Origin: Spirilliplanes yamanashiensis | Lineage (GTDB): Bacteria; Actinomycetota; Actinomycetes; Mycobacteriales; Micromonosporaceae | Assembly: GCF_016863475.1 (NCBI RefSeq) | Contig: NZ_BOOY01000009.1 | Coordinates: forward strand, 1-64,000 | Reading direction: 5' to 3' | Length of the DNA stretch: 64,000 nucleotides | Shown: positions 366-15,600 of the stretch, one piece after another | Numbering within the stretch: the stretch's first letter is position 1 | How the letters are laid out: the number at the start of each line of letters is the position of its first letter | Notes under the pieces: generated by a model | What the model was told of the DNA's origin: nothing | Database searches by the model: none | What the model saw: only the letters and a program-made list of their open reading frames with translations | Position numbers and translations under genes: made by a program

Positions 366-3300
366 TCAACCGACGGAGGCGGTGACGGATTGGATGCCGT
401 CGCCGGGCCGGCAGTGCGCGGCGCTGATGTCCGACGACGAGAGCGACCAGATGCGCGGACCGTTGGCGGTGTATCGCCGGAAGGTGCTCTCGGACACGCA
501 CCGGACGCTGACGTACACGTAGCCCCCGGTCGAACACCACGCCACGGCGCCGTACCTGTTGGTCGCCTCCACGTAGTCGGGTGCGTGCCGGGCCGCGCAG
601 GACGGCACCGCGTTCCCCGCACCACCGCCGCGCGAGCCCGCCGACGGCAGGTCGCCGGCCGATTCTCCGCTCGCGGGGCAGATCTGGGCGAAGTCCAGCT
701 CGGGCAGGTACGTCGACCACTTCTCCCTGGTCAGGCTCACGCCCGCGAGTGCGCACGCCCGGACGCTCGGATCCGCGATCAGGTCCTTCATCGCCCCGAG
801 GTTCCACAGGGTGGCCCGGCCGGCGTTGCCGGACTCGTTGGCGTCGGCGATCAGCACGGACCGTCCGTCCCGGCTGATCGCGGCCGACCACCGGTCCGCG
901 CGGTCGACGTCCTGCTCGCCCATGAGGATCGGGCGGGAACCGCCGGCGAGGCTCCAGGCCGACAGGGTCTCGGCCCCGGAGTCGACGGCGACGACGGTCG
1001 AGCCGTCGTGGGAGAACGCCATCGCGGCGGCGTGCGTGAGGTCCTCGGCGAAGCGTCCCACGCTGCGCGGCCGCTCGGGCGACGTGATGGTCCAGATCGT
1101 CGAGTACCGGCCCTGGGCCACCGCCACGGTGTTCCCGTCGGACGACATCGCGAGGTGTCCGATCCGCGCGCCGCGCGCGCCGGAGATCTTCCCCAGCTGC
1201 GCCGGCCCGGAGGGGGCGCGGAGGTCCCACACCCCTGCCGTGGTGTCGGACGTGCGCGACGCCGCCACCAGCCGGCCGCCCGGCCCGAAGGCCACCGGGA
1301 GACGCAGGTCGGCCGGCGGGTCGAGTCGCCGCGCCGGCCGGCCGGGCGCGACGTCCCACAGTTCGACGGTCCGGGTCCGGCCGTCGCCCACGGCGACCGT
1401 GGAGCCGTCCGGGCTGATGCCGAGCTCCGCCTGCGCCGCCACCGACCATTCCTCGGCCGCCGCGAACTCGGCGACCCGGACCGGCCGGGCGGGGTCGGCG
1501 AGGTCCGTCACCCGCACCCGGCCGTACGCGTCCGCCACCGCCACGAACCGCCCGTCCGGGGTGAGGGCCGCCCGGTGCACCGGCGCGTCGAACACGGGGA
1601 TCTCCGTCCGGGCGCCGCCGGGCGCCGCCCGCAGCACGGCCGTCGGCAGCGAGCCCACGGTCAGCAGCTGCCCGGACGCCGTGAACGCCGACGCCAGGCC
1701 CTGCGGTTCGCCGGCGTCCCGGAACGTCGCGACCCGCTCGGGGGCCGCGGGCGCGGAGGTGTCCCACTGCGCGCCGCCGGCGATGAGCGTGCGGGAGTCC
1801 GGGCTCAGCGCGATGGCCGAGCCGGCGTCAGCGACGGTGGTGATGCGGTCACGGAAGGCCGCGGACTTCGCCCAGCCGATCTCGTAGGGCTCGATGACGG
1901 AGATGACGGCGCCGTCGCCCTCGGCGATCGCCATCCGGCTCCCGTCCGGGGCGATCGCGATGGACGTCACCATCCCGCCCTGGTTGAGGAAGGTCTCGGC
2001 CGACGTGGGAACGGCTCGGGAGGTCAGGTCCAGGACGTAGGTCTGGCGCTTCGCGCCGATCACCAGCTCCGGCGTCGACGGCAGGAAGGCCAGCGCCCCG
2101 ACCGCGTCCCGGCCGATCACGTCGTCGAGCATGCCGGTCAGCTTCGGGGCGGCGGGGCTCGACAGGTCCCAGAGGCCGGTCCGGCCGCCCACCGCGTGGG
2201 TCGCCAGCATGGTGCCGTCGGCGCTGAACGCCGCGAGCTCGATGACCTTGCCCGCCGCGTTGCCGATCTGCGGGGCCAGCACGGCGGGCCGCCGCGGGTC
2301 GGCGAGGTCCCACAGCGAGCCGCCCTCGCGGAGGCGCAGGTCGGCCGTCGCGATGAACAACCGCCGGCCGGTCTGACCGAACGTCACGTCGGTCACGGTG
2401 TGGTGGACGGGGATCTGCCCGACGATCTCCGGTTCGGCCGGCGCGGAGATGTCGAAGACCGTGGCGTACGGTTCGCCGCTGGTGGCCGCGACGACGATCC
2501 GCCCGTCCCCGCTGACGTCCCACCGCTCGAACCTGCCGAGCCTCGACAGCTCCTTCGGGACGGCCCGGTCGGCGACGGTCCACACCGTCAGCTCGCCGGC
2601 CTCGCCGATGACGACGTCGTTGCCGGCGTACCTGACGTTCCTGCCCGCCATCGGCCCCGCGTACCGGGTCGACGCGACCATTCCGGCCAGGCGCCCGGGA
2701 GCGTCGGCACCGAGCTGGAGCTTCGTCGCGGCGATGCCGAGCTGCAGCGCCGTCGCCATGTCCCGATCGGCGAGCTCCTGCGCCTCGTTGAACAGGCGGC
2801 GGCCGATGGCGATCCGCTGCTGCTCGTCGGCGACGGCCCGCTGCTTCGTGGCGTCCGCGGCCGACTGCTCGGCGAGGCGCTGCTGACGGAGGGCCTCGGC
2901 GGCGGCGTCCTCGGCGAGCCGCCGCTGCTCCGCGGCGATCCGGCCCGCGTCCTCCGCGGCCGCCCTGGCCTCCTCGGCGAGCCGCGTCTGCTCGACGGCG
3001 ATCTGCCGCTGCCGCTCGGCGACCGCCGTGGCGTCGTTGGCCAGCCGGGTCTGGTCCGCCGCGATCCTCTTCTGCCGTTCGGACTCCGCCGTCGACCTGG
3101 CCGCGGCTGCCGCCTGCTCCTTCGCGAAGGCCGCCTGTTCCTGCGCGCGCCGCCCGGCCTCGCGCGCCACCTGCTGCTGCTCCCGGGCGATCTGCTCCTG
3201 CCGCCGCGCGTTCGCCTGCTGCCGCTGCACCTCCGCCGACGCCTGGTTCGCCAGCACGCGCTGCTGCTGCGCCCGCGTCGCCTGCCGGCCGGCCTCCGCC

Positions 3301-4121
3301 GCCGCCGCGCGAGCCCGCTCCCGCTCGGCCGCCGCGTTGCGCACCTGCGCCTGCGCCTCGGCGGCGGACCGGCCCGCGACCTGCTCCTGCTCCGCGGCGC
3401 GCGCCTCCTGGAACCCGGCCTCCGCCGCCACCTTCGCCTCGCGGGCGTTGCGCACCGCGACGACACCGGTCAGCGCGGCCACCAGCGCCAGCACCGTCAG
3501 GCCGCCGACGCCGGCCGACCACAACCGCCGGGCGCGCCGGTGCTGGCGGACGTCCTCGCCCTCGAGCTCGTCCTTGCTCAGGCCGTGCATCGGCGCCGCC
3601 AGCTGCGCGACCGCGTCGCGGAACCGCGGGTCGCGCAGCGTCAGCGGACCGCCCTCGCGCGCCCACCGCAGGTCCAGGTAGAGCGGCTCCTCGGCGAGCA
3701 CCCCGCGGAGCGCGGCCGGCACCGCGGACGAGTCCTCCGTGAAGTCGCCCCGCGCCGGATCCCACTGCCACTCACCGTCGGTGACGACCGGCAGGATGCG
3801 GTCCGGTGACCTGGTCGCCACCCAGTGCTCGATCTCCCTGTTCACCCAGTCCGAGCGCGCCGCCTCCGGCGAGGCCAGCAGGACCAGGAACTCCGAGTTG
3901 TCGAGCGCGTCCTGGATCGATGACCACAGGGCCGGCGACACCGACAGTCCGGTGTGATCCCGGAAGACCCACAGGGCGCGACGGCGGTGCCACGGCTTCG
4001 CCAACCGGTGCAGACCGCGCTGGAGCGCCGGCGCGAGCCGGCCGTCCGCCGCGTGGCTGTACGAGATGAACGCGTCGAACCTCAATGGAGCCCCTGATCG
4101 ATGAGCGTTTCGTGGGCGCAC
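366..4121 (-). CDS. TIR-domain protein: N-terminal TIR, single TM segment, ~300-aa Ala/Gln/Arg/Glu coiled coil, PD40/WD40-like beta-propeller repeats, Cys-rich C-terminus
   Basis: The N-terminus has FDAFISYSH (TIR betaA motif) and SDWVNREIEHW (the conserved TIR Glu position). A hydrophobic helix LWSAGVGGLTVLALVAALTGVVAV is preceded by RRARR. There are repeated ISPDGSTVAV/LSPDSRTLIAGG beta-propeller blades. The start codon is GTG at 4121-4119. Confidence 0.8.
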   Translation of the reverse strand: MRPRNAHRSGAPLRFDAFISYSHAADGRLAPALQRGLHRLAKPWHRRRALWVFRDHTGLSVSPALWSSIQDALDNSEFLVLLASPEAARSDWVNREIEHWVATRSPDRILPVVTDGEWQWDPARGDFTEDSSAVPAALRGVLAEEPLYLDLRWAREGGPLTLRDPRFRDAVAQLAAPMHGLSKDELEGEDVRQHRRARRLWSAGVGGLTVLALVAALTGVVAVRNAREAKVAAEAGFQEARAAEQEQVAGRSAAEAQAQVRNAAAERERARAAAAEAGRQATRAQQQRVLANQASAEVQRQQANARRQEQIAREQQQVAREAGRRAQEQAAFAKEQAAAAARSTAESERQKRIAADQTRLANDATAVAERQRQIAVEQTRLAEEARAAAEDAGRIAAEQRRLAEDAAAEALRQQRLAEQSAADATKQRAVADEQQRIAIGRRLFNEAQELADRDMATALQLGIAATKLQLGADAPGRLAGMVASTRYAGPMAGRNVRYAGNDVVIGEAGELTVWTVADRAVPKELSRLGRFERWDVSGDGRIVVAATSGEPYATVFDISAPAEPEIVGQIPVHHTVTDVTFGQTGRRLFIATADLRLREGGSLWDLADPRRPAVLAPQIGNAAGKVIELAAFSADGTMLATHAVGGRTGLWDLSSPAAPKLTGMLDDVIGRDAVGALAFLPSTPELVIGAKRQTYVLDLTSRAVPTSAETFLNQGGMVTSIAIAPDGSRMAIAEGDGAVISVIEPYEIGWAKSAAFRDRITTVADAGSAIALSPDSRTLIAGGAQWDTSAPAAPERVATFRDAGEPQGLASAFTASGQLLTVGSLPTAVLRAAPGGARTEIPVFDAPVHRAALTPDGRFVAVADAYGRVRVTDLADPARPVRVAEFAAAEEWSVAAQAELGISPDGSTVAVGDGRTRTVELWDVAPGRPARRLDPPADLRLPVAFGPGGRLVAASRTSDTTAGVWDLRAPSGPAQLGKISGARGARIGHLAMSSDGNTVAVAQGRYSTIWTITSPERPRSVGRFAEDLTHAAAMAFSHDGSTVVAVDSGAETLSAWSLAGGSRPILMGEQDVDRADRWSAAISRDGRSVLIADANESGNAGRATLWNLGAMKDLIADPSVRACALAGVSLTREKWSTYLPELDFAQICPASGESAGDLPSAGSRGGGAGNAVPSCAARHAPDYVEATNRYGAVAWCSTGGYVYVSVRCVSESTFRRYTANGPRIWSLSSSDISAAHCRPGDGIQSVTASVG

Positions 4122-4162: not shown

Positions 4163-7100
4163 TCACGCCCCGGCCGGACGGCGTTCGGCGGCGTAGGTGA
4201 TCGCCGCCTCCACGCCCGCCACCCGGTCGGCGAGCAGGCCGACCGCGCCGACCGCGCGGACCAGCGGGTCGTCCTCCGCGCCGCCCAGGGCGCGGCCCCG
4301 CAGGTACGCCGCCTTCACGTCGGCCCACCGCTGGGCCTGCTCGGGCGTCAGGCGGCCGCGCAGCTCGGCGAGCTTCAGCAGGTTCGCCTCGGCGCCCGAG
4401 GTGAGGGTCTGCGCCTCGCCGGCGTAGTGGTCGTCGATGACGGCGTCGAGTTCGTCGTCGTTCATGGCGGGCACGACGCGTTCGGCGAGCTTGTTCATGT
4501 TGCGGTACGAGCCCTGCAGCTTGAACGGCGGCTCGGTGCGGGCGTCGTCGCTCTGCGCGGCGGAGGCGATGTACGCCTGGTTGTTGGCGAGCACCACCTG
4601 CTGTACCCGGAGCAGTTTGCGCAGCACGCCGAGGATCTGCTCCAGCTCGACGGGCTGGTACGGGTGGGCGAGCCGGTCGGCGCGCACGGAGGTGTCGCCG
4701 CGGGCGAGGCGCACGAGCAGTTCGACGTCGCCGCGGTCGCGGGCGGCGACCGGGGCGAGCACCGGGTTCGCGGTGAGCGAGTTCTCCAGGTAGGACAGCG
4801 CGAACACGTCCTCCTTGCCGGACAGCACGTCGCCGAGGTTCCACACGTCGGCGCGGTTGGCGAGCATGTCGGGGATGCGGAACCGGCTGCCGGTCTCGGT
4901 GTACGGGTTGCCGGCCATGCACACGGCGAACCGCTTGCCGCGCAGGTCGTAGGTGCGGGTGCGGCCGTCCCAGACGCCCTCGATGCGGCGCTGGGCGTCG
5001 CACAGGGAGATGAACTTCTGCAGCAGCTCGGGCGAGGTGTGCTGGATGTCGTCGAGGTAGAGCAGGACGTTGTTGCCCAGCTCCAGCGCAAAGTTGATCT
5101 TCTCGACCTCCTGGCGGGAGGTGGCGTCGGGCGCCTCCGCCGGGTCGAGGGACGTGACGGCGTGGCCGAGGGCGGGGCCGTTCACCTTGACGAAGACCAG
5201 GCCGAGCCGGTTGGCGACGTACTCCATGACGGTGGTCTTGCCGTAGCCGGGCGGTGAGATCAGCAGCAGCAGGCCGGACTGGTCGGTGCGCTTGCCGTCG
5301 CCGGTGGCGCCGAGCTGGCGGGCCAGGTTGTCGCCGATGAGCGGCAGGTAGACCTCGTCGAGGAGCCGGTTGCGGACGAACGCGCTCATCACGCCCGGCT
5401 TGTACTCGTCGAGGCGCAGCCGGTCGCGTTCGGCGGCGGCCAGCGCGGTGCGCTGCTTCTGGTACGCCCGGTACGCGGGCACCCGCTGCTCGCGGAACGC
5501 CCGGGTGCGGGTGAGCACCTCGTCGAGGCGCAGGTCCAGGGTCCGGCCGGCGGTGATCCGCGGGTGGGTGCCGAGCAGGCCGGTGACCGTCTCGGTGAGC
5601 GCGGCGGCCGAGTCGTGCCGGGTGAGGGCGGCGCCGGTCAGCTCCACGGCGACGGCCTCGGGCAGGTCCTCGGGCGACGCGGTGTCCGGCCTGGCGGCCA
5701 GGAACGCCGACAGCCACGCGGTGACGAGCTGCCGCCGGGCGGCCAGGTCGCCGTCGAGCAGCCGCAGGTCGTCGGCGTACTCGCGGGCCGCGGCGGCCGG
5801 CAGCGCCTGGTGGAAGCGTTCGACGAGGGTGCGGGCGGCGGCGCTGGTGACGAACCCGGCGTGCGGGTCGGCCAGCTCCTCCACCAGGTACTCGCCGACG
5901 TCGGCGGCCGGCGGCAGCCCGGCGGCGGCGGCGAAGTCGCGGGCGGCCGCGGTGAGCTCGGCGCACAGCTCGCCCAGGGCCGGGCCGGCGGAGCCGAACA
6001 GGTCGCGGGCGCGCACCAGCGACGCGGCGCGCCGCGCCCACGCGTCCTTCGGGCCGGGCCCGAACGCCCAGAACAGCTGCGCGTCGGCGCGCACCGCGGC
6101 GGGGTGGCGCAGCAGGCCGGCGGCCGCGTGCAGGCGCACCAGCGCGTCGAGGATGGCGGCCGCGTCGGCGTCGTGCACGCCGCGCTCGTATCCCTCGTCG
6201 TACCGCGCCTCCGCCGCGCGGCGCACCACGTCGCGCAGCGTGCCGTCGGCGGCGGCCGCCGCGACCCCGGCGGGGTCCTCGGCCAGCAGCGCGGCGGCCA
6301 GGTGCTCCGCGCGGTACACCTGCGGCGTCTCCGACACGACGGTCTGCGACCAGAAGTCGCGGGTGGCGCGGAACGCCGGGTCGGTGACGGGCGCGCGGTA
6401 GTCGGTGGCGGTGACGGCGAACGCCAGCTCGTCGCCGTCCGGCACCAGCGTCAGGTCGACGGCCTGGGTGTTCACGGCGAACCTGTGCCGGCCGAGCCGG
6501 ATCGTGGCGCCGCCGTCGCCGTACAGGTCGAGGCGGTCGCGCAGGGACCGTCCGGCCTCCTGCCGGGCGGCCTTGACCCGGCCGTCCAGCTCCTCGGCCC
6601 GCACGGTGTCGCCGAGGGCACGCAGCTCGTCGGCGACCGCGCGCAGCTTGCCGACCATGGGGTCGGTGGCGAAGTACGTGTTGACCTCGTCGAGCGTGCC
6701 GAGCGCGGCGACCCGCCGCTGCACGCTGGCGAGGGTGCGCTGGGCGGACGCGGCGAGCCGGTCGGCGCGGCGGGCGCGGTCGTCCAGCAGCGCCTGGCGG
6801 CGGGCGGAGAACGCCTCGTAGACCTCGGCGCGCTTCGTGGCGAGCTGGTCGAGGAAGTCGTCGCCGAACCGCGACTCCAGCGCCTCCACCTGCAGCATCA
6901 GCCGGGCGAGCTGCTCGTCGCAGCGGTCCGGGGTGTCCGCGGCGGCGAGCGCGCCGGTGACGGACTGCCCCAGCAGCGCGAACTCGGCGGCGAACGCGGC
7001 CCGGTTCTCCACCGAGCCCAGGTCGCGGCGGCGCGCGTCGAGCGTGGCGCGGGCCCGGTTGACGCCGCCCAGCACCTCGCCGATGCGTTCCAGGATCGCC

Positions 7101-9058
7101 ACCCGCACGGTGGCGTCGGCGATGTCGAGGCCGCCGACCACCTCGGTGACGACCTGCAGGCCGTCGGCCTGCTCGGTGAGCCGCTCCGCGACGGGCGCCG
7201 CCTCGGCGACGGTGGCGATGCCGGCCGCGTCGGCGACGAGCTGCTCCACGGCGGCCTGGTAGCCGGCGAACGCGTCCGCGCGCTGGAGGAACTCGACGGC
7301 GCGGCGGGCGGCGGCGTCGATCTCGCCGGCCAGCTCCGCCTCCAGGGCGTCCAGCCGGGCGGTGTCCACGTACCGCAGCTCGTGCAGCGACACCACACGG
7401 CCCCGCGCCTGCCGCAGCGCGGCGAGCTGGCGCACCCAGGCATCGGTCGTGGTGGGCACCTCGCCGCGGGCCCGGCGGACCAGCGACCCGGTCGCGGCCT
7501 CGGCCTCGGCGACGGCGCCCGCGGCCTGGTCCGTCAGGGCCTGGACGGCCTCGAACTCGTCGAGCACCTGCTCGGCGGTGGCCCGCACCTCGGACAGCGG
7601 CGTGCGCAGGTCGCCCAGCTCGCGCTCGCCCAGCCAGTGGTAGTGGTCGAACAGCCGGGTGCACGCCGCGATGATCGCCTCGAACACGGCCGTCGACGGC
7701 GTCATCTCGTCGACCATGCGCGCCACCGACAGGCTGTCGGCGATGCCGCGCACCAGGTCCGCGTTGCCGACCCGCTCCAGCGGGCCGGTGCCGACGGGCT
7801 GCGCCGCCGCGTGCGTGTCGGACACGTACGGGGTCTGCCACACCTGCATCGGGTGCACCCGCGTCGGCTCGTCCGATGTGGACCGGAACGCGACGAGGGT
7901 GCCGTCGTCGAACAGCGAGTACCCGTGGCAGGGGATCGGCGTGGCGACCTCCTTGCGGATCACGTTGTACGGCAGCAGCAGGTAGTGGCCCGCCGCGCGG
8001 GCGTGGAAGACGTACAGCACGTCCTCGCCGTTGACGCTGCGCACGACCCGCTCGAACTCCAGGTCGGCCACGTCCGCGTCGAACGTCTTCGCCACCCCGG
8101 TGGACAGGTAGTAGCCGCCGGGAAAGATGAGGCCCTGGTCCTCGGGCAGCCGCTGGCACGCCTGGCCGATGCCGTCGAGGCGCCGCACGTCCTTCGTGCG
8201 GGTGTTGAACACCAGGTACCGCTGGACGGTCTCCTTGTAGGGCAGGACCCTGAGCAGGATCAACGGCCCCACCCGGGCGTACGCGATCTCGGCGTCCGCC
8301 AGGCTCTGCAACGGCTCGTCGACCGGCTCGGACCAGATGCCCTCGCCGTCCTCCGTGTTGTTCTCCACCTTGACGGTCAGCGTGCCGCCGACCGTCTCCA
8401 CGAACACCTCGTCGCCGATCGAGATGTGCGGGTGCCGGCCGAGCACGTGCTGCTCGCGCGTGGTGAGCGTCCACTCCAGATCGTGGCTCGGCGGGAACAC
8501 GTGGTCGCGTTCGCCGCGGTTGTCCACGTACGACACCGAACCGTCCGTGCCGACCTTCCAGCGCAGCACCTTCAGGTCGTCGGCGCGGGCGCCCGTCTGG
8601 AACACCGCCAGCAGCAGCCCCTCCAGGCGCCGCAGCTGCAACAGCCGGGTGTCGCGGTAGTAGCGGTACAGCTCGGCGAAGTCGCGCTGGAAACCCGGAT
8701 CGTCGAGCAGGCCCGGCACCGCGCCCGCGTCGAACCGCACGGCGTCGCCGTCCCGGGCGAACGCGTGCACGTCGAAGACGTCCGCAATGGACGTCTCCGT
8801 CTTCAGTCCGATAAAGACGTTGTAGCCGAACAGCATCGCGCCGCCGACCTGCGCGACGTCGCGCGGCACGCAGTTGTTCGCCGTGCGGATGCGCTCCGTG
8901 CCGAGCAGGCGCATCTGCTGCCCGCCGAACGTCTCCACCCGGCGGGCGTTCAGCTCCTCCGCGCGCCGCGCCAGCGCCTGCGCCTGCGTGGACAGCCGGC
9001 CGCGCAGGACCTCGTACGTGCCGGCGTCCAGCGTCGGCGCCTCCTGCAGATCGGTCAC
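4163..9058 (-). CDS. Giant (1631 aa) protein with a C-terminal AAA+ ATPase domain, flotillin-associated
   Basis: Walker A-like LLLISPPGYGKTTVMEY and Walker B-like VLLYLDDIQH are present, plus a sensor-region RFAVCMAGNPYTE. Amino-acid composition is normal across 1631 aa. The start overlaps the flotillin stop by 4 nt. The alternative-frame ORF 4128..8474 is Arg/Gly junk. Confidence 0.8.
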   Translation of the reverse strand: MTDLQEAPTLDAGTYEVLRGRLSTQAQALARRAEELNARRVETFGGQQMRLLGTERIRTANNCVPRDVAQVGGAMLFGYNVFIGLKTETSIADVFDVHAFARDGDAVRFDAGAVPGLLDDPGFQRDFAELYRYYRDTRLLQLRRLEGLLLAVFQTGARADDLKVLRWKVGTDGSVSYVDNRGERDHVFPPSHDLEWTLTTREQHVLGRHPHISIGDEVFVETVGGTLTVKVENNTEDGEGIWSEPVDEPLQSLADAEIAYARVGPLILLRVLPYKETVQRYLVFNTRTKDVRRLDGIGQACQRLPEDQGLIFPGGYYLSTGVAKTFDADVADLEFERVVRSVNGEDVLYVFHARAAGHYLLLPYNVIRKEVATPIPCHGYSLFDDGTLVAFRSTSDEPTRVHPMQVWQTPYVSDTHAAAQPVGTGPLERVGNADLVRGIADSLSVARMVDEMTPSTAVFEAIIAACTRLFDHYHWLGERELGDLRTPLSEVRATAEQVLDEFEAVQALTDQAAGAVAEAEAATGSLVRRARGEVPTTTDAWVRQLAALRQARGRVVSLHELRYVDTARLDALEAELAGEIDAAARRAVEFLQRADAFAGYQAAVEQLVADAAGIATVAEAAPVAERLTEQADGLQVVTEVVGGLDIADATVRVAILERIGEVLGGVNRARATLDARRRDLGSVENRAAFAAEFALLGQSVTGALAAADTPDRCDEQLARLMLQVEALESRFGDDFLDQLATKRAEVYEAFSARRQALLDDRARRADRLAASAQRTLASVQRRVAALGTLDEVNTYFATDPMVGKLRAVADELRALGDTVRAEELDGRVKAARQEAGRSLRDRLDLYGDGGATIRLGRHRFAVNTQAVDLTLVPDGDELAFAVTATDYRAPVTDPAFRATRDFWSQTVVSETPQVYRAEHLAAALLAEDPAGVAAAAADGTLRDVVRRAAEARYDEGYERGVHDADAAAILDALVRLHAAAGLLRHPAAVRADAQLFWAFGPGPKDAWARRAASLVRARDLFGSAGPALGELCAELTAAARDFAAAAGLPPAADVGEYLVEELADPHAGFVTSAAARTLVERFHQALPAAAAREYADDLRLLDGDLAARRQLVTAWLSAFLAARPDTASPEDLPEAVAVELTGAALTRHDSAAALTETVTGLLGTHPRITAGRTLDLRLDEVLTRTRAFREQRVPAYRAYQKQRTALAAAERDRLRLDEYKPGVMSAFVRNRLLDEVYLPLIGDNLARQLGATGDGKRTDQSGLLLLISPPGYGKTTVMEYVANRLGLVFVKVNGPALGHAVTSLDPAEAPDATSRQEVEKINFALELGNNVLLYLDDIQHTSPELLQKFISLCDAQRRIEGVWDGRTRTYDLRGKRFAVCMAGNPYTETGSRFRIPDMLANRADVWNLGDVLSGKEDVFALSYLENSLTANPVLAPVAARDRGDVELLVRLARGDTSVRADRLAHPYQPVELEQILGVLRKLLRVQQVVLANNQAYIASAAQSDDARTEPPFKLQGSYRNMNKLAERVVPAMNDDELDAVIDDHYAGEAQTLTSGAEANLLKLAELRGRLTPEQAQRWADVKAAYLRGRALGGAEDDPLVRAVGAVGLLADRVAGVEAAITYAAERRPAGA

Positions 9059-11079
9059 CTCACGACCGTGCCGTTGGCCGTACCCGTGAGGGCCGAGATC
9101 TTCCGGTCGGCGACGCCGAGCTGCTGCGCGGCGTCGAGCAGCTCCCGCAGCTTGCCGGCGTCGGCGCCGCCGGCCTTGATCTGCTGGGTGAGGAACGCGG
9201 CCAGCGTCATATTCGCGATGTCGCCCGTGGACACCCCGCCCAGCACGCGGCCCAGGTCCTCGGCGAGGTTCGCCGAGCCGTCCAGGTACCGCGCCCCGAT
9301 GCCCTGCGCCACCGTGGAGTGGCCGACGAACCCGTCGAGGCTCTTGCCCATCGTGATCGAGCCGAGCAGCTTGTCGAAGAACACCGAGTCGCCGCCGACG
9401 ATGTCGATGTTCGCCTTCTCCAGGCCCGCGGAGACCACCATCGCCTGCGACTCGGCGATCTGCCGGTGCACGTCGATGCCGGCGAGCCGGATCTCCTTCT
9501 CCATCTCCAGCCGCAGCCGGTACTCCTCGTGCTCGCGGGTCGCGTCGTCCAGCGCCGCCATCGCGCCGGCCTTCTCCTGCAGACCCTCGGCCTCGCCCTT
9601 CAGCTTCTCGCGGATCGCCTCCGCCGCCACCAGCGCCTTCTCGCGGTCCACGGCGGCCTCGGCGCGGCCAGTCTTCTCCACCACCTCGGCGTTGCGCTCG
9701 CGCACCTGCACGTCGGCCAGCCCCGCCGCGGCCGCCTCGGCCTGCGTCCCCTCGGCCAGCCGGATCTTCGCCCGGGCGTCCAGCTCCGCCGTCTGCTGCC
9801 GCGCCTCGGCCAGCGTCAGCTCCTCGCGCGCCTTGTGCTTCGCGGCCGCCTCGGCGGCCTCCGCCGCCTTGATGTCCTTGACCAGGTGCTCCTGCGCCTC
9901 CGCCTCGGCGGCGATGATGACGGCCTGCCGGGTCCGCTCCGCCTCCTCGACGACGCGCAGCCGCTTGATGTTCTCCTCCTGCTCGGCCACGGTCTTCTCG
10001 ACGGCGATGCGCTCGCGGATCACCTCGGCGATCGAGCGCTTCTCCGCCTCGACCTCCTTATTCTTCGCGATCGTCGACAGTTCCGTCTCCCGCTCGCGGC
10101 CGATCACCTCGAGCATCCGGTCCTTCTCGATGCGCTCCGTCTCGATCGCGATGACCCGCTCGCGGTTCTTCTCCGCCACGGCGATCTCGCGCGCCTTGTT
10201 CTCCTTCTGCACCCCGAGCTGCTGCTCGGTGCGCAGGTGCGCGCCCTCGGCGCGGAGCCGCTCCTCGGCGTGCGCCAGCGCGATCTCCGCCTCCTCGCGG
10301 GCCCGCATCGTCTCGATCTCCCGGCGCTGCTTGATCTCCGCGTCCGCCTGCCGGCGCTCCAGCTCGAGGATCGCCTCCTTGGCGTCCACGTTCTGCCGGG
10401 TGAGCTCCTTCTCCTCGTTGCGCTTGTAGTCGTTCGTCTTGATCGCCTCGATCGCCGTCAGCTCGGTGATCTTGCGAATGCCCTGCGCGTCCAGGATGTT
10501 CTTCGGGTCCAGCGACGACATCGGCGTCTGCTCGAGGTAGTCGATCGCCGCGTCCTCGAGGCTGTAACCGTTCAGGTCCGTGCCGATCACCTGGATGATC
10601 TGGTCGCGGAACTCGTCGCGCTTCGTGTACAGGTCGACGAAGTCCAGCTGCTTGCCGACCGTCTTCAACGCCTCCGAGAACTTCGCGCTGAACAGCTCCT
10701 GCAACGTCAGCTCGTTGCTCGCCCGCGCCGTGCCGATCGCCTGCGCCACCTTCACCACGTCCTCCACGGTCTTGTTGACCCGCACGAAGAACGTGATCCG
10801 GATGTCCGCCCGGATGTTGTCGCGGCAGATCAGACCCTCCCGGCCCGTCCGCGCGATCTCGATCGTCTTCACCGAGATGTCCATCGTCTCGGCCTTGTGC
10901 AGCACCGGCAGCACCACGGCGCCCGTGAACGTCACGTCCACCCGCCGCGTCTTGCTCACGATCAGCGCCTTGCCCTGCTCCACCTTGCGGAACAGCCGGC
11001 TGACGATGAGCGCCATGCCGATGACGACGACGAGAATGACGGCCAGCAGGATGCCGAGCCCGGTGGAGATGACGTCCAT
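9055..11079 (-). CDS. SPFH/band-7 flotillin family protein (YqiK-like) with long C-terminal coiled coil
   Basis: An N-terminal TM helix is followed by an SPFH core (KALIVSKTRRVDVTFTGAVVLPVLHKAETMDISVKTIEI...RADIRITFFVRV). An extended EA/KR-rich heptad region follows. Confidence 0.9.
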   Translation of the reverse strand: MDVISTGLGILLAVILVVVIGMALIVSRLFRKVEQGKALIVSKTRRVDVTFTGAVVLPVLHKAETMDISVKTIEIARTGREGLICRDNIRADIRITFFVRVNKTVEDVVKVAQAIGTARASNELTLQELFSAKFSEALKTVGKQLDFVDLYTKRDEFRDQIIQVIGTDLNGYSLEDAAIDYLEQTPMSSLDPKNILDAQGIRKITELTAIEAIKTNDYKRNEEKELTRQNVDAKEAILELERRQADAEIKQRREIETMRAREEAEIALAHAEERLRAEGAHLRTEQQLGVQKENKAREIAVAEKNRERVIAIETERIEKDRMLEVIGRERETELSTIAKNKEVEAEKRSIAEVIRERIAVEKTVAEQEENIKRLRVVEEAERTRQAVIIAAEAEAQEHLVKDIKAAEAAEAAAKHKAREELTLAEARQQTAELDARAKIRLAEGTQAEAAAAGLADVQVRERNAEVVEKTGRAEAAVDREKALVAAEAIREKLKGEAEGLQEKAGAMAALDDATREHEEYRLRLEMEKEIRLAGIDVHRQIAESQAMVVSAGLEKANIDIVGGDSVFFDKLLGSITMGKSLDGFVGHSTVAQGIGARYLDGSANLAEDLGRVLGGVSTGDIANMTLAAFLTQQIKAGGADAGKLRELLDAAQQLGVADRKISALTGTANGTVVR

Positions 11080-11672
11080 CAGCTGTCCTTAGAGTCTCGT
11101 GGTTCCAGCGCGACGTCGGCGGGGACCACCCAGAAGAACTCCCCGTCCGCGTCGAAGTCGTAGAGCACCGCGACGGTGCCGTACCGCAGCTCGTCCTGCC
11201 CCGCCTGGCGCACCTGCACCAGCGCCGTCGACCCGTCGGCCGCCGCCACCTCCGCCTGACCGAACCGGTCGGTCACCCGCTGCGTGCGGATCACCGCCGT
11301 CCGCCCGAGGAAGTGCTGCCGCGACGGCTCCACGCCCGTCGGCATCGCCCTGCGCAACACCGCGACGAGCAGGCGCGTCGTCACCCACGCCGTGACGAGC
11401 GCCGCCGCGAGGGCGATCGCACCGGCGCCGGGCACGTTCTCCAGCAGGACGGCACCGGCCAGGCTGACGAACCAGGCCACGGCGATCAGCAACGACAGCG
11501 CCACGGTGACGGGCACGCCCCCGAGCCCGACACTGCCGAAGGCGTCCTCACCGAGACTGTCGGTGTCCGCCCCGCCGACCATGACGACCAGCCAGTAGAC
11601 GACCACCACGGCGAGCAGGAAGGTGAACAGAACGGTCGGGAAGCTCAACGCCGCCTCGACGAACCCGCCCAT
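11079..11672 (-). CDS. NfeD/YqiJ-like membrane protein (3 TM helices plus C-terminal OB-fold-like beta domain)
   Basis: Three hydrophobic helices are followed by a ~70-aa beta-rich tail. It sits immediately upstream of the flotillin gene and overlaps it by 1 nt, which is the classical NfeD-SPFH arrangement. Confidence 0.7.
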   Translation of the reverse strand: MGGFVEAALSFPTVLFTFLLAVVVVYWLVVMVGGADTDSLGEDAFGSVGLGGVPVTVALSLLIAVAWFVSLAGAVLLENVPGAGAIALAAALVTAWVTTRLLVAVLRRAMPTGVEPSRQHFLGRTAVIRTQRVTDRFGQAEVAAADGSTALVQVRQAGQDELRYGTVAVLYDFDADGEFFWVVPADVALEPRDSKDS

Positions 11673-11751
11673 CCCGCCCCCGTCTCAGTTGTCCTGGTGC
11701 CGCCCTAGATGATGGCAGGAGGGTGCAAGATCCGTTGCCCCGTCGACGGCC

Positions 11752-11765
11752 GGACGGATCCGTCC
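11752..11765. promoter_or_regulatory. Perfect 14-bp palindrome GGACGGATCCGTCC ~80 bp upstream of the NfeD-flotillin-ATPase-TIR operon start; candidate operator
   Basis: Read directly from the sequence. It lies in the non-coding leader of the minus-strand operon. Confidence 0.3.
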
Positions 11766-12338
11766 GAACGGACATTTCAACGCAACGTTGAGGGGGCACG
11801 GTCAGAGATGTGACACAAGCAGCGCAACCTCACGCCATATAAACGACGCCGCGCCCGGCGACCGTCGGCATCCTCCATCACGCGCGTGTCTGTGCGCATG
11901 GTTCTTCGGCGGCGGTGCTCACTGCCCACCTCTCGATCGGCCCATCGCGGACCGACGCCCTGGCCACACGTAGCGCCGGCCGAAGCAGCTTCACGTCATC
12001 AAGAACGGCCTGGCCGAAGCCGGACCGTACGCACGCACTCAAGGTCCATGGCCTCGCGCGCCCACCAACACCAAGTACCCCAATGAAGGCCAAGACGGTG
12101 GACCGTCAAGGCCGTTACGGTCCCTCCACCCATCACCCGGCGGAGGCAATTCCCGGGATCGACGCATTAGCCGGTTGCCGACAATGCCGGGACTTGACAG
12201 AACATTGACGGCAAATTGAGCATGCGGCCACCACCCTTCGGCGCTGGCGCCACTCCTCGCAGCCATTGAGTGCGGACTTCTAGGGACACCGCCGTCCAAC
12301 GTTATGGACGGCGCCCTTTGCTCGCCGTCGTTGTCGTG

Positions 12339-12629
12339 TCAAATTCGATCGTAGACAGGGGTGTACTCGGGCGCAGTCTCAGGAACATCCGGGTATCGAA
12401 TGGTGCCCTCAGTCTCCCACCAGCGGCTCGTATACTCGCTCGGATTCTTGTACTCGAAGATCGCTACTAGGCCAAGCAGGGAGACCGGACTGTCCGCCCA
12501 GAAATCCCAGCCATCTCGCTCAGCGCAATACGCATCCTGCTTCCGGTCGTACCACACGGAGAATCCTTTATTCTCCAGGACTGCGATCGCCGTCGTGTAG
12601 ACATTCACGTGCTCGCTCAGCGCTGGCAT
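12339..12629 (-). CDS. Candidate immunity protein (96 aa) for the RHS C-terminal toxin
   Basis: It starts 8 nt downstream of the RHS stop on the same strand. Its composition is non-junk (W/Y/E rich) and its GC is markedly lower than the genome, matching the adjacent toxin tip. Confidence 0.5.
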   Translation of the reverse strand: MPALSEHVNVYTTAIAVLENKGFSVWYDRKQDAYCAERDGWDFWADSPVSLLGLVAIFEYKNPSEYTSRWWETEGTIRYPDVPETAPEYTPVYDRI

Positions 12630-12637
12630 CCCTACCC

Positions 12638-15600
12638 CTATCTGTTCCGGATGAGAGTTATCGCGTCGTGCGGAATCGAGCCTACGAAGAGAACCTCCTC
12701 AGCACGCCGCGCATCGCGCACCACGCGTGAGTCACCACTCCTGTTGGCGGCTTGCATGACGTTATTGTGATCAATAAACTTGGCCCCGCCCGCAATTGCC
12801 TTATTGACATCGATTGCAACCATTCCTTGACCTGAGGCGAACCGTTCGGTCGCTCCCTCAGTCACCGACGCAGAGATGTGCTTGGTCGGCCGGTTCAAAA
12901 TATGGTCGGTTATGGACCCGGTGGTACCGCGAGGCTGCAGGTCTTCGCCCTTGTCGAATGCCGTACGATCATCATAGTTCAGCTGCCGGTAAACCGTTGG
13001 CCCACAGTCCGCGCTGTTCCTACTCCTGTTGTTGTTGTGGACCAGTACCGGCGTGTCGCCGGCTGTCACATAGTACGTGTGGATGTCGGCCACGGTCAGG
13101 TCGCGCATTTCGCGCTTACCGTGATAATTGCGGACCGCCGCGACGACGACCCCGCTTCCTTCCACGCCCAGCTTCGTGCCCCGCCGGAGGTTCTTGGCGT
13201 CTGTCCACTTCCGGTCAGTGGCGTTCCAGAACGGGTGGTTCTGCGTCGTCTTCAGGACGTACGTCTTGCCCTTGTTGTTCCGGACCTTGAGGTCGGTCAG
13301 CTCACGGTCGAGATTGCGATGAATCGCGGTGACCTGCCGGTCACCAGATTTCCCGGTCTCCGGGTCCTTCGCCTCGACCTTGTCGCCGACGTTGACGTCC
13401 TTGATGGGACGGGTTGAGCCGTCTGCCATCAGCACCTCGGTGTCGGGGTCGAAGCTGTGCTTCGCTCCCTTGGCAGGTGCTGTCAGGCACCCGTGCCCGC
13501 CGCCGACCGAGACGCCGGCCACGCCGACGGCCGACTGCAGCCCGCTGCCACCGGAACCACCACCCTTGCGGTTGAGCAGGCTGAGGCCCGGGACCATACC
13601 GAGAACAGACGACTTCACGTCCACCCGGCCCGTCGTGACAGCCTGCCCGACGACGTCCTCGACGCCGTTCTGGGCCGCCTCCGTCGCCAGACGACCGGCC
13701 CAGCCCGTGCCCACACGCGCCGCCACCGCGGTGCCGACCTTCGCGGCGATGAGACCGCCCGCGCCACCCGCAAGACCCGACAGCGCGCCGGTGCCCAGCG
13801 ACCCGAGTGCGTCGCCCAACGAGTTGATGTCGCCTTGCAGGCCGTCCTTGGCCAGGTTGATCAGCGCGGCCGTTCCGGCCATACAGGCGATCGCGCCCAC
13901 GCCGGCTGTCACCGCCGTGCAGGCCACGCCGGCCAGGATCGCGCCACCGATCGCCGCGATCTCCAGCAGCATGTTCTTGTTGTTCTGCACAAACTTCTTC
14001 GTGGCGGCCACGCCGTCCTGGATGACGCTGACGGTTTTGCCGATCCCTCTGGCTACCTTCGCGAACGCTTTCTTGTGCGCCTGGAAGATTCTCGTTCGCT
14101 CGACCGCCGCGGCGATCGATTTCGCTTTCTGGGCGACCCACTTCCGGGCGCTGTTCGCCGTCTTCTGCACCCAGTTCTTGGCGCTGCTCCACGCCTTGGA
14201 GACGCTGTGGACCGCCTTACTGATGGTGCGGCCGACCGCCTTGACCGCCCGGGCGGCGTAGTTGTAGACCGACACGGCACCGCGGTAGAACGCCGTCGAC
14301 TGCACGTAGTTCTTCGTCGCCGTCCAGGCCGTCGAGACCACCGACGACACCGCGCTCTTGGCCTTGTTCCACGCGCCCTTGAAGCTCCAGTGGCCTGTCG
14401 GGTCCGTGTTCTTCAACGGGTTGGCGTCGCCGTACTGGTAGCGGTTGGCGCTGACCGAGTCCGGGACCGGGCTGACCGACGCCATGTCCCGGGTGTCGAA
14501 CTGGCCGGTGTCGACGTTGTACCAGCGCGCGTGCATGTTGACGCGGTTGGTCGCGGTGTCCTTCCACTCCGACTGGTAGCCGAGGCCGCCGACCAGGCCG
14601 GTCGACTGCAGGACTGCGCCCAGCGGGTCGTACGTCGCCGAGCCGATCAGGGTGGGGCTGTCGGCGGTGAACTGGCCCACGACGTCGTCGTGCTGGTCGG
14701 TCCAGACGTTGCGGGTGGCGCCCGCGGACCTGGTCGCGACCACGTCGCCGGCGCTGTCGCGCACGTACGTCGCCGACCCGTCGGCCGCCAGGTCGTTGCC
14801 CAGGCCTGAGTACGAGAAACCGTCTCGGATGGAGCGGCCGAGCGCGTCGTAGCGGTAGGTCTGGCTCGCCTGGTTGACGACCTGCCCGAAGGCGTCCGAG
14901 CGGGTGGTCTGGCCGCCCGCCGAGGCGAGCGTGCCCCGCGGCGTGTACGCGTACGAGGTGCCGTTCGCCGTCTTCAGGCGGTTGCGTTCGTCGTACGTGA
15001 ACAACTTCTCGCCGTTCTGCACGCGGTTGCCGGACTTGTCGTACGCGTACGCGGTGATCTTCGTACCGTCGTTCCAGGCCACCAGGCGGTCGGCGTAGTC
15101 GTACTCGTAGCTGTTGTCTGCGGAGCCGGCAAAGCCGGTGGTCTTCTTGCGGAGCAGGTTGTCGTTGTCGTCGTACTCGTACTCGATCTTGGCGATGGAG
15201 GCGCCCGCGCCGGTCTTCAGCTCGTCGACGATCGGGCGGTTGAAGTCGTCGAAGGCGATGTTGCGTGTGTTGCCCGTGCCGAACGTGACCTTCTCGACCT
15301 GCGACAGCTTGTTGTAGTCGTAGCTCTCCCGGATGCCTGCGGTCGTGTTGGCGAGGGTCTTGACCCGGCCCGCGCTGTCATAGGTGAACGACGTCCGGCC
15401 GGCGGCGTCCTCGCGCTCCGCAACTTCGCCGTCGTCGGTGTAGGAGAACGTCGTGTTGCCCGACGGGCCCGTAATTGAGGTGGGCAGTCCGCGGTCGTCG
15501 TACGACAGGACGTTCGTGCCGCCGACGCCGGAGAACTTCGTCATCCGGCCGCCGGTGTCGTAGTCGAACTCGCGGTTCTCCGTCGCCGCCTCGGCACCCG

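Follow-up and report, generated by a model that had tools for sequence, protein, structure and literature searches.

Toll-like receptors (TLRs) of animals are single-pass membrane proteins with a repeat-built sensor outside the cell and a TIR domain inside it. The same arrangement is predicted for the product of a gene at positions 366 to 4121, on the minus strand, of a 64,000-nucleotide (nt) stretch of DNA from the actinobacterium Spirilliplanes yamanashiensis (contig NZ_BOOY01000009.1; the whole stretch is called the window below), in which an N-terminal TIR domain is followed by one transmembrane (TM) helix, a stalk and a WD40 double propeller. Conserved TIR domains are combined with divergent ectodomains in both groups of proteins, and induced proximity of the TIR domains is the likely logic in both. 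They differ in construction, as TLRs are type I proteins with a C-terminal TIR and leucine-rich repeats (LRRs), whereas the protein described here is type II, has an N-terminal TIR without a signal peptide, matched no LRR family and carries a coiled-coil stalk and WD40 propellers. Judged from its sequence, its TIR also has the catalytic Glu in a context resembling that of bacterial enzymes that cleave nicotinamide adenine dinucleotide (NAD), and is probably an enzyme and not an adaptor scaffold alone. We regard the resemblance to TLRs as convergent, as nothing indicates that the architecture as a whole was inherited from a common ancestor. An earlier, sequence-only reading of this DNA had described an inside-out TLR topology. 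The term does not fit, as sensor and TIR occupy the same sides of the membrane as they do in TLRs; only the order of the chain is reversed.

A type II layout with an N-terminal cytoplasmic catalytic output, a single TM helix and an extracytoplasmic propeller is also found in PknD of Mycobacterium tuberculosis, which consists of an N-terminal kinase, a TM helix and an extracellular NHL-type beta-propeller. Compared with PknD, the present protein has a TIR in place of the kinase, a WD40 double propeller in place of the NHL propeller, and a long coiled-coil stalk in addition. Among bacterial TIR proteins, AbTir, TcpB/BtpA and Thoeris ThsB share with it the Pfam families TIR_2 or ThsB_TIR; the YDxFIS[HY] and WxxxE motifs align, and its Glu corresponds to AbTir E208. 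However, those proteins are soluble, either cytoplasmic or secreted, sense intracellular cues or act on hosts, and in none of them is a TM helix followed by a large extracytoplasmic sensor. The gene also differs from Thoeris in that it is not a ThsB-type gene in an operon with a signal-activated effector, no ThsA-type effector adjoins it, and the match to the PADLOC ThsB model has an E-value of only 0.031. The TIR-STAND(NB-ARC/NACHT)-WD40/TPR proteins of multicellular bacteria (Kaur, Burroughs, Iyer and Aravind 2020, PMC7159879) are similar in having an N-terminal TIR and a variable C-terminal WD40 sensor and in being expanded in filamentous actinobacteria, but in the present protein no NTPase family was matched and a TM helix and coiled coil are found instead. 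With a TM helix in place and no NTPase, the repeats are therefore predicted to lie outside the cell and a step of NTP-driven oligomerisation to be absent.

Our preferred explanation, to which we give a probability of roughly 0.55, is that the gene encodes a type II single-pass receptor, with an NAD-cleaving TIR in the cytoplasm, about 1000 residues of stalk and 14-blade WD40 double propeller outside, and an output triggered by a ligand. The parts of the gene are as follows:

366..4121, minus strand: full open reading frame (ORF), 1251 amino acids (aa) from GTG; the likelier coding sequence is 366..4085
3537..4085, minus strand: TIR module (core and conserved C-terminal extension up to the membrane), aa 13-195, from Pfam, a profile search of the PDB, Foldseek and conservation
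4053..4079, minus strand: beta-A motif FDAFISYSH, aa 15-23, aligned with AbTir YDLFISHA
3834..3848, minus strand: WxxxE motif W92-V-N-R-E96, in which E96 is the predicted catalytic Glu, aligned with AbTir W204/E208
3525..3548, minus strand: basic cluster RQHRRARR, aa 192-199, on the N-side of the TM helix, from a sequence scan
3453..3524, minus strand: single TM helix, aa 200-223 (LWSAGVGGLTVLALVAALTGVVAV), predicted type II signal-anchor, Kyte-Doolittle mean 2.37
2712..3452, minus strand: Pro-free helical stalk rich in Ala, Gln, Arg and Glu, aa 224-470, from composition, the period of 7.0 and helices predicted by AlphaFold2 (AF2)
801..2663, minus strand: tandem WD40 beta-propellers, aa 487-1107, about 14 blades, predicted extracytoplasmic sensor, from Pfam, AF2 and Foldseek
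678..797, minus strand: C-terminal helical cap, aa 1109-1148, with the family-wide Cys pair C1123 and C1148 (C-x24-C), from AF2 and the alignment
369..599, minus strand: beta-rich tail domain, aa 1175-1251, with four Cys, from AF2; common to the nearest homologue (P0002) only

The ORF is intact from GTG at 4121 to the stop codon at 366-368. At a G+C content of about 76%, this DNA contains chance long ORFs in several frames; the ORF at 366..4121 is a real gene by sequence comparison, since its product carries Pfam domains, has at least 833 homologues at E <= 1e-5 and is a 100% match to the 1239-aa "TIR domain-containing protein" of S. yamanashiensis at NCBI (P0001). NCBI places the start of the same protein at the TTG at window position 4085, 12 codons inside the ORF. 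The true coding sequence is probably this one (366..4085, minus strand, 1239 aa), because a Shine-Dalgarno-like AGGGG lies a few bases upstream of the TTG and the starts of the homologues (consensus M-x-F-D-G-F-I-S-Y-S-H) coincide with it. Residue numbers in this text are those of the 1251-aa ORF, and the NCBI numbering is obtained by subtracting 12.

The fold of the N-terminal domain was assigned by three routes. Residues 18-118 match Pfam TIR_2 (PF13676) at 33.4 bits (cut-off 28) and ThsB_TIR at 27.4 bits (cut-off 21.2), and TIR models are likewise matched above cut-off in distant relatives. A profile built from 18 diverse modules retrieved only TIR chains from the PDB, among them L6, AbTir, BtTir, TcpB/BtpA, RUN1, a TIR from Arabidopsis, a TIR-STING fusion and a TPR protein matched in its N-terminal part. 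For aa 1-250, the AF2 model (predicted local distance difference test score, pLDDT, 64) was used solely for the order of secondary structure and a coarse Foldseek check. It gives strands (E) and helices (H) in the order E17-20, H29-40, E50-53, H63-74, E79-83, H91-103 and E109-113, the alternating beta/alpha pattern of a TIR, and Foldseek matched this low-confidence model almost exclusively to TIR domains (RUN1, RPP1, SPARTA TIR-APAZ, EcThsB, AbTir, BtpA, L6, MyD88 and TLRs). The sequence-only reading had named an N-terminal TIR followed by a single TM helix, and both parts were borne out, the TIR by the Pfam, profile and Foldseek results above and the TM helix by the single hydrophobic span described below. 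The best match of the profile in the PDB was 9m0n_A, aligned over the helix-C WxxxE region in the N-terminal part of an 824-aa "Tetratricopeptide repeat protein", which is apparently a solved bacterial TIR-TPR protein.

In a single-sequence search of the PDB, the query segment S-D-W-V-N-R-E-I-E-H-W was aligned to K-D-W-T-N-Y-E-L-D-G-L of AbTir, and the family profile aligned both YDAFISYSH with AbTir YDLFISHA and the helix-C motif with its AbTir counterpart. W92 and E96 fall on AbTir W204 and E208 in both kinds of alignment. On this basis E96 is, by sequence, the position of the catalytic Glu, equivalent to AbTir E208 and SARM1 E642, as had been proposed earlier; only the spacing given then, W-x-x-E, needs correcting to W92-x-x-x-E96, that is WxxxE. 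S90, W92, V93, E96 and W100 are invariant among 55 close homologues. In the 18 modules from distant clusters, the W, V and E of the helix-C motif and the F, S, Y and S of the beta-A motif are invariant, and the identity of the TIR module over the family is 56-85%. In AbTir, W204 and E208 form the WxxxE motif and the E208A substitution abolishes NADase activity (bioRxiv 10.1101/2023.05.19.541320). The TIR domain is therefore probably an active NAD-cleaving enzyme, as far as this can be predicted from the motif.

An alternative is that the TIR is a non-catalytic module for protein-protein assembly, as in TLRs and MyD88, and that the Glu is structural or incidental. WxxxE is indeed conserved in the non-enzymatic TIR domains of TLRs too (bioRxiv 10.1101/2023.05.19.541320), and the 183-aa module, which continues for about 80 residues past the Pfam core, is more conserved than catalysis alone requires. 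On the other hand, the bacterial TIRs with the same Glu that have been tested are NADases (this is established for AbTir, ThsB and others), W92 and E96 are both invariant, and the TPR-S neighbours discussed below point to a nucleotide product. Nor was a conserved cytoplasmic TIR-containing partner seen in the 82 loci whose neighbourhoods were compared. We consider a non-catalytic TIR improbable.

The TM helix is the only hydrophobic span of the protein. The 19-residue Kyte-Doolittle mean reaches 2.37 at aa 200-223, and the next best window of the whole protein reaches 1.17. The TM helix lies at the same place in 120 of 120 close homologues, and a strong hydrophobic segment directly follows the module in 138 of 142 further cluster representatives. 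One span was found in 116 of the 120 close homologues, so the absence of an additional TM helix holds for the query and nearly all of them; the other four have a weak second peak (1.64-1.82) within the propeller. In the AF2 model of the N-terminal part (the same pLDDT 64 model), a continuous helix runs from aa 183 through the TM helix to aa 249. With one span only, the TIR and the propellers are placed on opposite sides of the membrane.

Which side is which was judged from three features. The sequence has no N-terminal signal peptide, in the absence of which export of an N-terminal domain of 185 residues would be unexpected in bacteria. Second, the Lys and Arg residues in the 15 residues on either side of the TM helix were counted in three sets of proteins:

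119 close homologues: mean 5.3 on the N-side and 2.6 on the C-side; N-side higher in 119, equal in 0, C-side higher in 0
112 representatives of 50%-identity clusters: mean 5.0 on the N-side and 3.4 on the C-side; N-side higher in 86, equal in 22, C-side higher in 4
24 loci outside the Actinoplanes group: mean 5.0 on the N-side and 3.0 on the C-side; N-side higher in 21, equal in 3, C-side higher in 0

The third feature is the distribution of Cys. An even number of Cys is a signature of disulfide-bonded exported proteins in Actinobacteria. In the TIR part, Cys makes up 0.03% of residues in the close homologues and 0.22% in the diverse representatives. In the C-terminal part the number of Cys is even in 112 of 119 close homologues, most often exactly two that form the invariant C-x24-C pair of the cap, and it is even in 97 of the 112 diverse representatives (0 Cys in 6, 2 in 40, 4 in 32, 6 in 11, 8 in 5, 10 in 2 and 12 in 1) and odd in the others (1 Cys in 1, 3 in 6, 5 in 6 and 7 in 2). 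Among the more distant loci the count is even in 21 of 24. The query itself has six Cys, all beyond aa 1122. These Cys and charge counts come from related sequences and are hence not independent trials; still, that parity is held while the number of Cys changes is hard to explain otherwise, on the sequences compared. Together, the lack of a signal peptide, the N-side excess of Lys and Arg and the even-Cys bias of the C-terminal part support a topology with the TIR predicted in the cytoplasm and the propellers outside. The earlier argument for a cytoplasmic TIR had been made from the RRARR on the N-side of the helix in the query alone, and the charge and Cys biases across the family now point the same way.

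The twin Arg directly before the TM helix is near-invariant. Tat-dependent insertion through this RR was considered, but the fit to the Tat consensus is poor in most members.

The opposite possibility would be that the hydrophobic segment is merely a tether, or is inserted with its N-terminus out, and that a cytoplasmic WD40 domain senses an intracellular cue at the membrane in the manner of STAND or NLR proteins. Canonical WD40 is typical of cytoplasmic proteins, distant members of the family from proteobacterial metagenome-assembled genomes (MAGs) have very canonical WD40, and the closest structural matches of the propellers are cytoplasmic eukaryotic proteins and Apaf-1. However, a single span of 24 residues forces the TIR and the propeller to opposite sides, export of the N-terminal domain would be unexpected as explained above, basic residues lie on the N-side throughout the family, the even-Cys parity is confined to the C-terminal part, and a TIR outside the cell would find no NAD+. 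For these reasons we consider a misassigned topology very improbable, and the receptor with its TIR inside and its propellers outside is kept for the rest of the argument.

Between the membrane and the propellers lies a stalk of about 250 aa in which Ala makes up 30%, Gln 15%, Arg 14% and Glu 12% of the residues and Pro is absent. Its apolar residues show a period of 7.0 with a power of 4.42, compared with a mean maximum of 1.28 and a 99th percentile of 2.15 in 300 shuffles. This signal above the shuffles supports the prediction of a coiled coil from the sequence, which had been made earlier from the Ala/Gln/Arg/Glu composition; the length proposed then, about 300 aa, was too long. If continuous, the stalk would measure about 36 nm (0.148 nm per residue). 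In the AF2 model its last part is a short helical cap packed onto the propeller. A long stalk (162-295 Pro-free residues) is found in the Micromonosporaceae clade and a few Acidimicrobiia, and most other family members have 27-60 residues from the TM helix to the first Pro. It is a speculation that the propellers are displayed at or beyond the peptidoglycan, with the stalk length in the Actinoplanes clade being of the same order as the thickness of the actinomycete wall.

For the ectodomain, many WD40-type propeller families of Pfam match aa ~505-1062, with PF00400 at 40.3 bits (cut-off 27), and the match to PD40 falls under its cut-off. AF2 was run on aa 430-1251 with a family alignment of 55 sequences and gave a mean pLDDT of 88 and a predicted TM-score (pTM) of 0.81. 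The model begins with three short helices and continues with about 55 beta strands over aa 487-1107; the helical cap (aa 1109-1138) comes next, and a disordered linker leads to a beta-rich tail. The strands are read as 14 four-stranded blades forming two seven-bladed propellers in the model. Foldseek against the PDB found tandem WD40 propellers with E-values down to 8e-29, including a 14-blade Nostoc protein, UTP/WDR ribosome-assembly factors, Aip1 and Apaf-1. From these matches, the blades in the AF2 model and the PD40 match below its cut-off, the propeller is taken to be WD40-type and double. The sequence-only reading was thus right about the WD40 type, but PD40 is not supported and there are two propellers rather than one.

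The C-terminal helical cap with its Cys-x24-Cys pair and the tail of about 100 aa with four Cys had been missed in the sequence-only reading. Both Cys of the pair in the cap are invariant in the family, and the double propeller is probably stabilised by a disulfide. The tail, which follows a disordered linker (aa ~1153-1172) and is modelled at lower confidence, is Cys-rich and common to the query and its nearest homologue P0002 only (67% identical). A homology search with aa 1148-1251 gave no match to known secreted proteins or to other relatives, therefore the tail adds no evidence on topology beyond its four Cys.

The protein is not a singleton but, from sequence searches, a member of a very large uncharacterised bacterial family. 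With aa 1-195 as query, a full HMMER search of 1.84 billion cluster representatives (50% identity clusters) found 13,275 proteins at E <= 1e-3 and 3168 clusters at E <= 1e-30, and the best 150 matches cover the whole 183-residue module at 59-82% identity. In the sampled members a TIR_2 domain is followed by WD40-type propellers, and a few are without a recognised C-terminal domain. When a single genome is counted for each species, the TIR module is encoded at a minimum of 562 loci, most of them in Actinoplanes and other Micromonosporaceae. Further hosts are Mycolicibacterium, Modestobacter, Acidimicrobiia, Gaiellales and Solirubrobacterales, and some loci are in MAGs classified as Burkholderiales, Rhodospirillaceae, Povalibacter, Gemmatimonadota and Methylomirabilota; a search of IMG/VR viral contigs gave no relatives. 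The architecture is already present in sequence databases under generic names, and full-text searches, with their incomplete coverage of the literature, returned no description of a bacterial TIR-TM-WD40 receptor.

Close homologues are 68-85% identical to the query in the TIR-TM part and 25-40% in the ectodomain (62% in the nearest one). The S. yamanashiensis genome has at least three paralogues, two of them in tandem, and several Actinoplanes genomes have two to four paralogues each among the top matches. Divergent ectodomains beside a conserved TIR, together with multiplied paralogues, look sensor-like in their evolution, as judged from these sequences. The two tandem copies (1088 aa and 1082 aa) share a strand and occupy 6664..9930 and 10001..13249 of another locus of the genome (L083, JAUSQT010000001.1).

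The steps by which such a receptor would work can be proposed as follows. The stalk would hold two or more chains parallel, as dimers or trimers, and the variable propellers would bind an extracytoplasmic ligand. Binding could alter the packing or clustering of the chains so that the TIR domains self-associate, and the self-associated TIR domains would then cleave NAD+. Self-association is needed for NADase catalysis by TIR domains in SARM1, plant TIRs, AbTir filaments and SPARTA. Two outputs can be envisaged. One is a nucleotide messenger derived from NAD, which in some distant relatives would be read by an adjoining TPR-S protein fused to a nucleotide cyclase or a SARP-type transcription regulator. 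The other is a local depletion of NAD+ that would arrest or kill a hyphal compartment.

The neighbouring genes of the relatives bear on this choice. An all-against-all comparison of ORFs over the 82 loci showed two recurrent neighbours, a SARP/NB-ARC/TPR regulator and a TPR-S gene. The Pfam family TPR-S (PF20308, "Tetratricopeptide Repeats-Sensor") was matched in an adjoining gene at nine loci (L039, L040, L041, L044, L048, L057, L063, L067 and L077), which come from several MAGs of Acidimicrobiaceae and Acidimicrobiia and from one MAG each of an uncultured member of Actinomycetes, of Burkholderiales and of Methylomirabilota. A class III nucleotide cyclase is joined to TPR-S within one ORF in L040, L044, L048 and L063, whereas the TPR-S and cyclase matches of L057 are on separate ORFs that overlap. 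The TPR-S protein of L067 also carries Trans_reg_C, BTAD and cNMP_binding domains, forming a SARP-type regulator. TPR-S alone was detected in L039, L041 and L077, and the ORF of L077 is cut by the contig end. The arrangement varies: in L077 the TPR-S and TIR genes are on the same strand with a gap of 2 nt, and elsewhere they are divergent or convergent. Crp-type regulators with cNMP_binding and HTH domains are nearby in five loci (L040, L048, L054, L057 and L063), and cyclase and NB-ARC genes are found in three (L058, L064 and L070).

TPR-S was reportedly defined by Burroughs and Aravind in 2020 as a scaffold predicted to recognise NAD-derived signals. A TPR domain of the TPR-S kind has also been proposed to perceive cyclic ADP-ribose made by a TIR. 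As TPR-S fused to a cyclase or SARP adjoins the TIR gene in these distant loci, a small-molecule output of the TIR is suggested. This is the strongest hint at the output, and it is probable that a nucleotide signal is emitted by some of the family at least. The pairing of a TIR gene with an adjoining TPR-S gene in the nine loci resembles the systems of a TIR and a TPR sensor such as ThsI of type VIII Thoeris (bioRxiv 10.64898/2025.12.03.692087), and has been proposed to serve ADPR-type signals made by a TIR and the proteins that read them. The systems differ in two respects, as the TIR partner here is a membrane receptor and TPR-S is joined to a nucleotide cyclase or SARP output, not to a cytidine monophosphate (CMP) hydrolase; the query locus differs further in having no TPR-S neighbour.

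The second recurrent neighbour, an AfsR-like SARP regulator with Trans_reg_C/BTAD, NB-ARC and TPR domains, adjoins the TIR gene in 15 loci of the Actinoplanes group in more than one arrangement (L005-L010, L014, L017-L019, L021, L022, L031, L034 and L079). It was considered as a further TPR-S protein and rejected: its repeats are ordinary TPR_12-type ones, with a best TPR-S E-value of 0.27, and provide no link to a messenger. Its presence in the Actinoplanes group may reflect synteny. In two Acidimicrobiaceae loci, a gene for a membrane-anchored DUF459/SGNH (GDSL-like) hydrolase lies directly upstream on the same strand (L040, 4689..5786; L063, 4832..5836), and the two proteins are 37% identical.

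At the query locus itself, the genes upstream of the TIR gene in the window are:

4163..9058, minus strand: DUF3686, DUF7902 and AAA ATPase gene, 1631 aa, directly upstream
9055..11079, minus strand: SPFH/Band 7 gene, 674 aa, upstream
11079..11672, minus strand: 197-aa gene with a weak Yip1-like membrane match, upstream
12638..23377, minus strand: RHS-repeat polymorphic toxin gene, 3579 aa, with Laminin_G, DUF6531 and a C-terminal PT-HINT pretoxin module, further upstream

The first three of these genes (4163..11672) overlap or abut one another on the same strand, and the DUF3686-AAA gene is separated from the TIR gene, also on that strand, by 41-77 nt. A functional tie to them was considered and rejected, as unrelated genes surround both the nearest homologues and the other paralogues of S. 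yamanashiensis; the neighbours do not recur beside them, and therefore the gene is treated as stand-alone. The 96-aa gene that follows the RHS toxin gene in the NCBI gene calls could encode its immunity protein. Downstream, beyond window position 1, is a convergent 414-aa gene without a Pfam match, and past it a conservon-like operon with an ATP_bind_1 GTPase-like gene, DUF742, Roadblock/LC7 and a NIT-HAMP-HATPase_c sensor (together at 13734..20804 of L082). Neither a SIR2/SLOG, Macro, TM-effector or TPR-S gene among the neighbours nor signs of a defence island were found at the query locus, and the 64-kb window contains no homologue of the TPR-S, cyclase, Crp or SARP-NB-ARC neighbours of the relatives.

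The lack of a partner gene at the query locus, and at most Actinoplanes loci, would be expected if a receptor of the same topology acted in suicide or growth arrest, with NAD+ depletion in the triggered cell or hyphal compartment as its sole output and neither messenger nor reader. Such a receptor would sense the envelope and cause abortive infection or regulated cell death, for example upon phage adsorption, wall damage or the presence of a competitor. The intact and invariant catalytic Glu fits this explanation, the expanded paralogues with divergent sensors resemble repertoires of immune receptors, and conflict systems that combine TIR effectors with repeat sensors are enriched in multicellular actinobacteria (PMC7159879). 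However, PADLOC gave no significant match to a defence system, viral contigs contain no relatives and the locus no sign of a defence island, and the reader-type TPR-S genes beside distant relatives speak for a signal in at least some of the family. Depletion as the only output is therefore possible but rather doubtful.

For the family as a whole we favour the messenger output over depletion. It can be suggested tentatively, and with some doubt, that the family consists of surface receptors whose own TIR turns the recognition of an extracytoplasmic ligand into an NAD-derived messenger, which in part of the family would be read by TPR-S proteins that switch on synthesis of cyclic nucleotide monophosphates or SARP-type transcription. 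For the query gene, which has no adjoining partner, messenger and depletion are both retained as outputs of the proposed receptor.

Several observations weigh against the receptor as proposed. Canonical WD40 repeats are classically cytoplasmic, and an exported WD40 double propeller would be unusual. The AF2 model of aa 1-250 is poor, and matches to solved TIRs are weak in both the single-sequence and the profile searches (E 1e-3 to 1e-1). The neighbourhood of the TIR gene is not conserved in relatives, and no TPR-S, cyclase or other candidate reader was found within 10 kb of the query gene. Outside the Actinoplanes group, the association with TPR-S concerns 9 of roughly 38 loci, and several of the nine are from related MAGs. 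Finally, no known system could be assigned: NCBIfam has no family for the TIR-TM-WD40 protein, and PADLOC gave only non-significant matches (PDC-S66, E 0.0016, besides the ThsB match mentioned above), therefore the gene cannot be filed under a known defence system.

To summarise, the family can be seen, on the strength of sequence comparisons, as a variant of TIR-based signalling, whose interest lies in its predicted outside-in wiring and in the link to TPR-S and cyclases. To our knowledge, the bacterial TIR systems studied to date all detect something intracellular. If the proposed receptor is correct, bacterial TIR chemistry would also be used to sense what happens at the surface of the cell, for example contact with phage, damage to the wall, or the presence of neighbours or competitors. 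The logic of TLRs would then have been reached by a different construction, which bears on the origin of transmembrane TIR signalling. If the more tentative messenger output holds as well, signals would be carried across the membrane in a new way, convergent with TLR signalling but based on an enzyme, and the paralogue repertoires would serve filamentous actinobacteria as pattern receptors at the surface. The TPR-S, cyclase and Crp neighbours offer a concrete pathway that would join NAD-derived and cyclic-nucleotide signalling. As the module is conserved across a family of thousands of clusters in Actinomycetota and several further phyla, characterising one member biochemically would provide an annotation for many genes.

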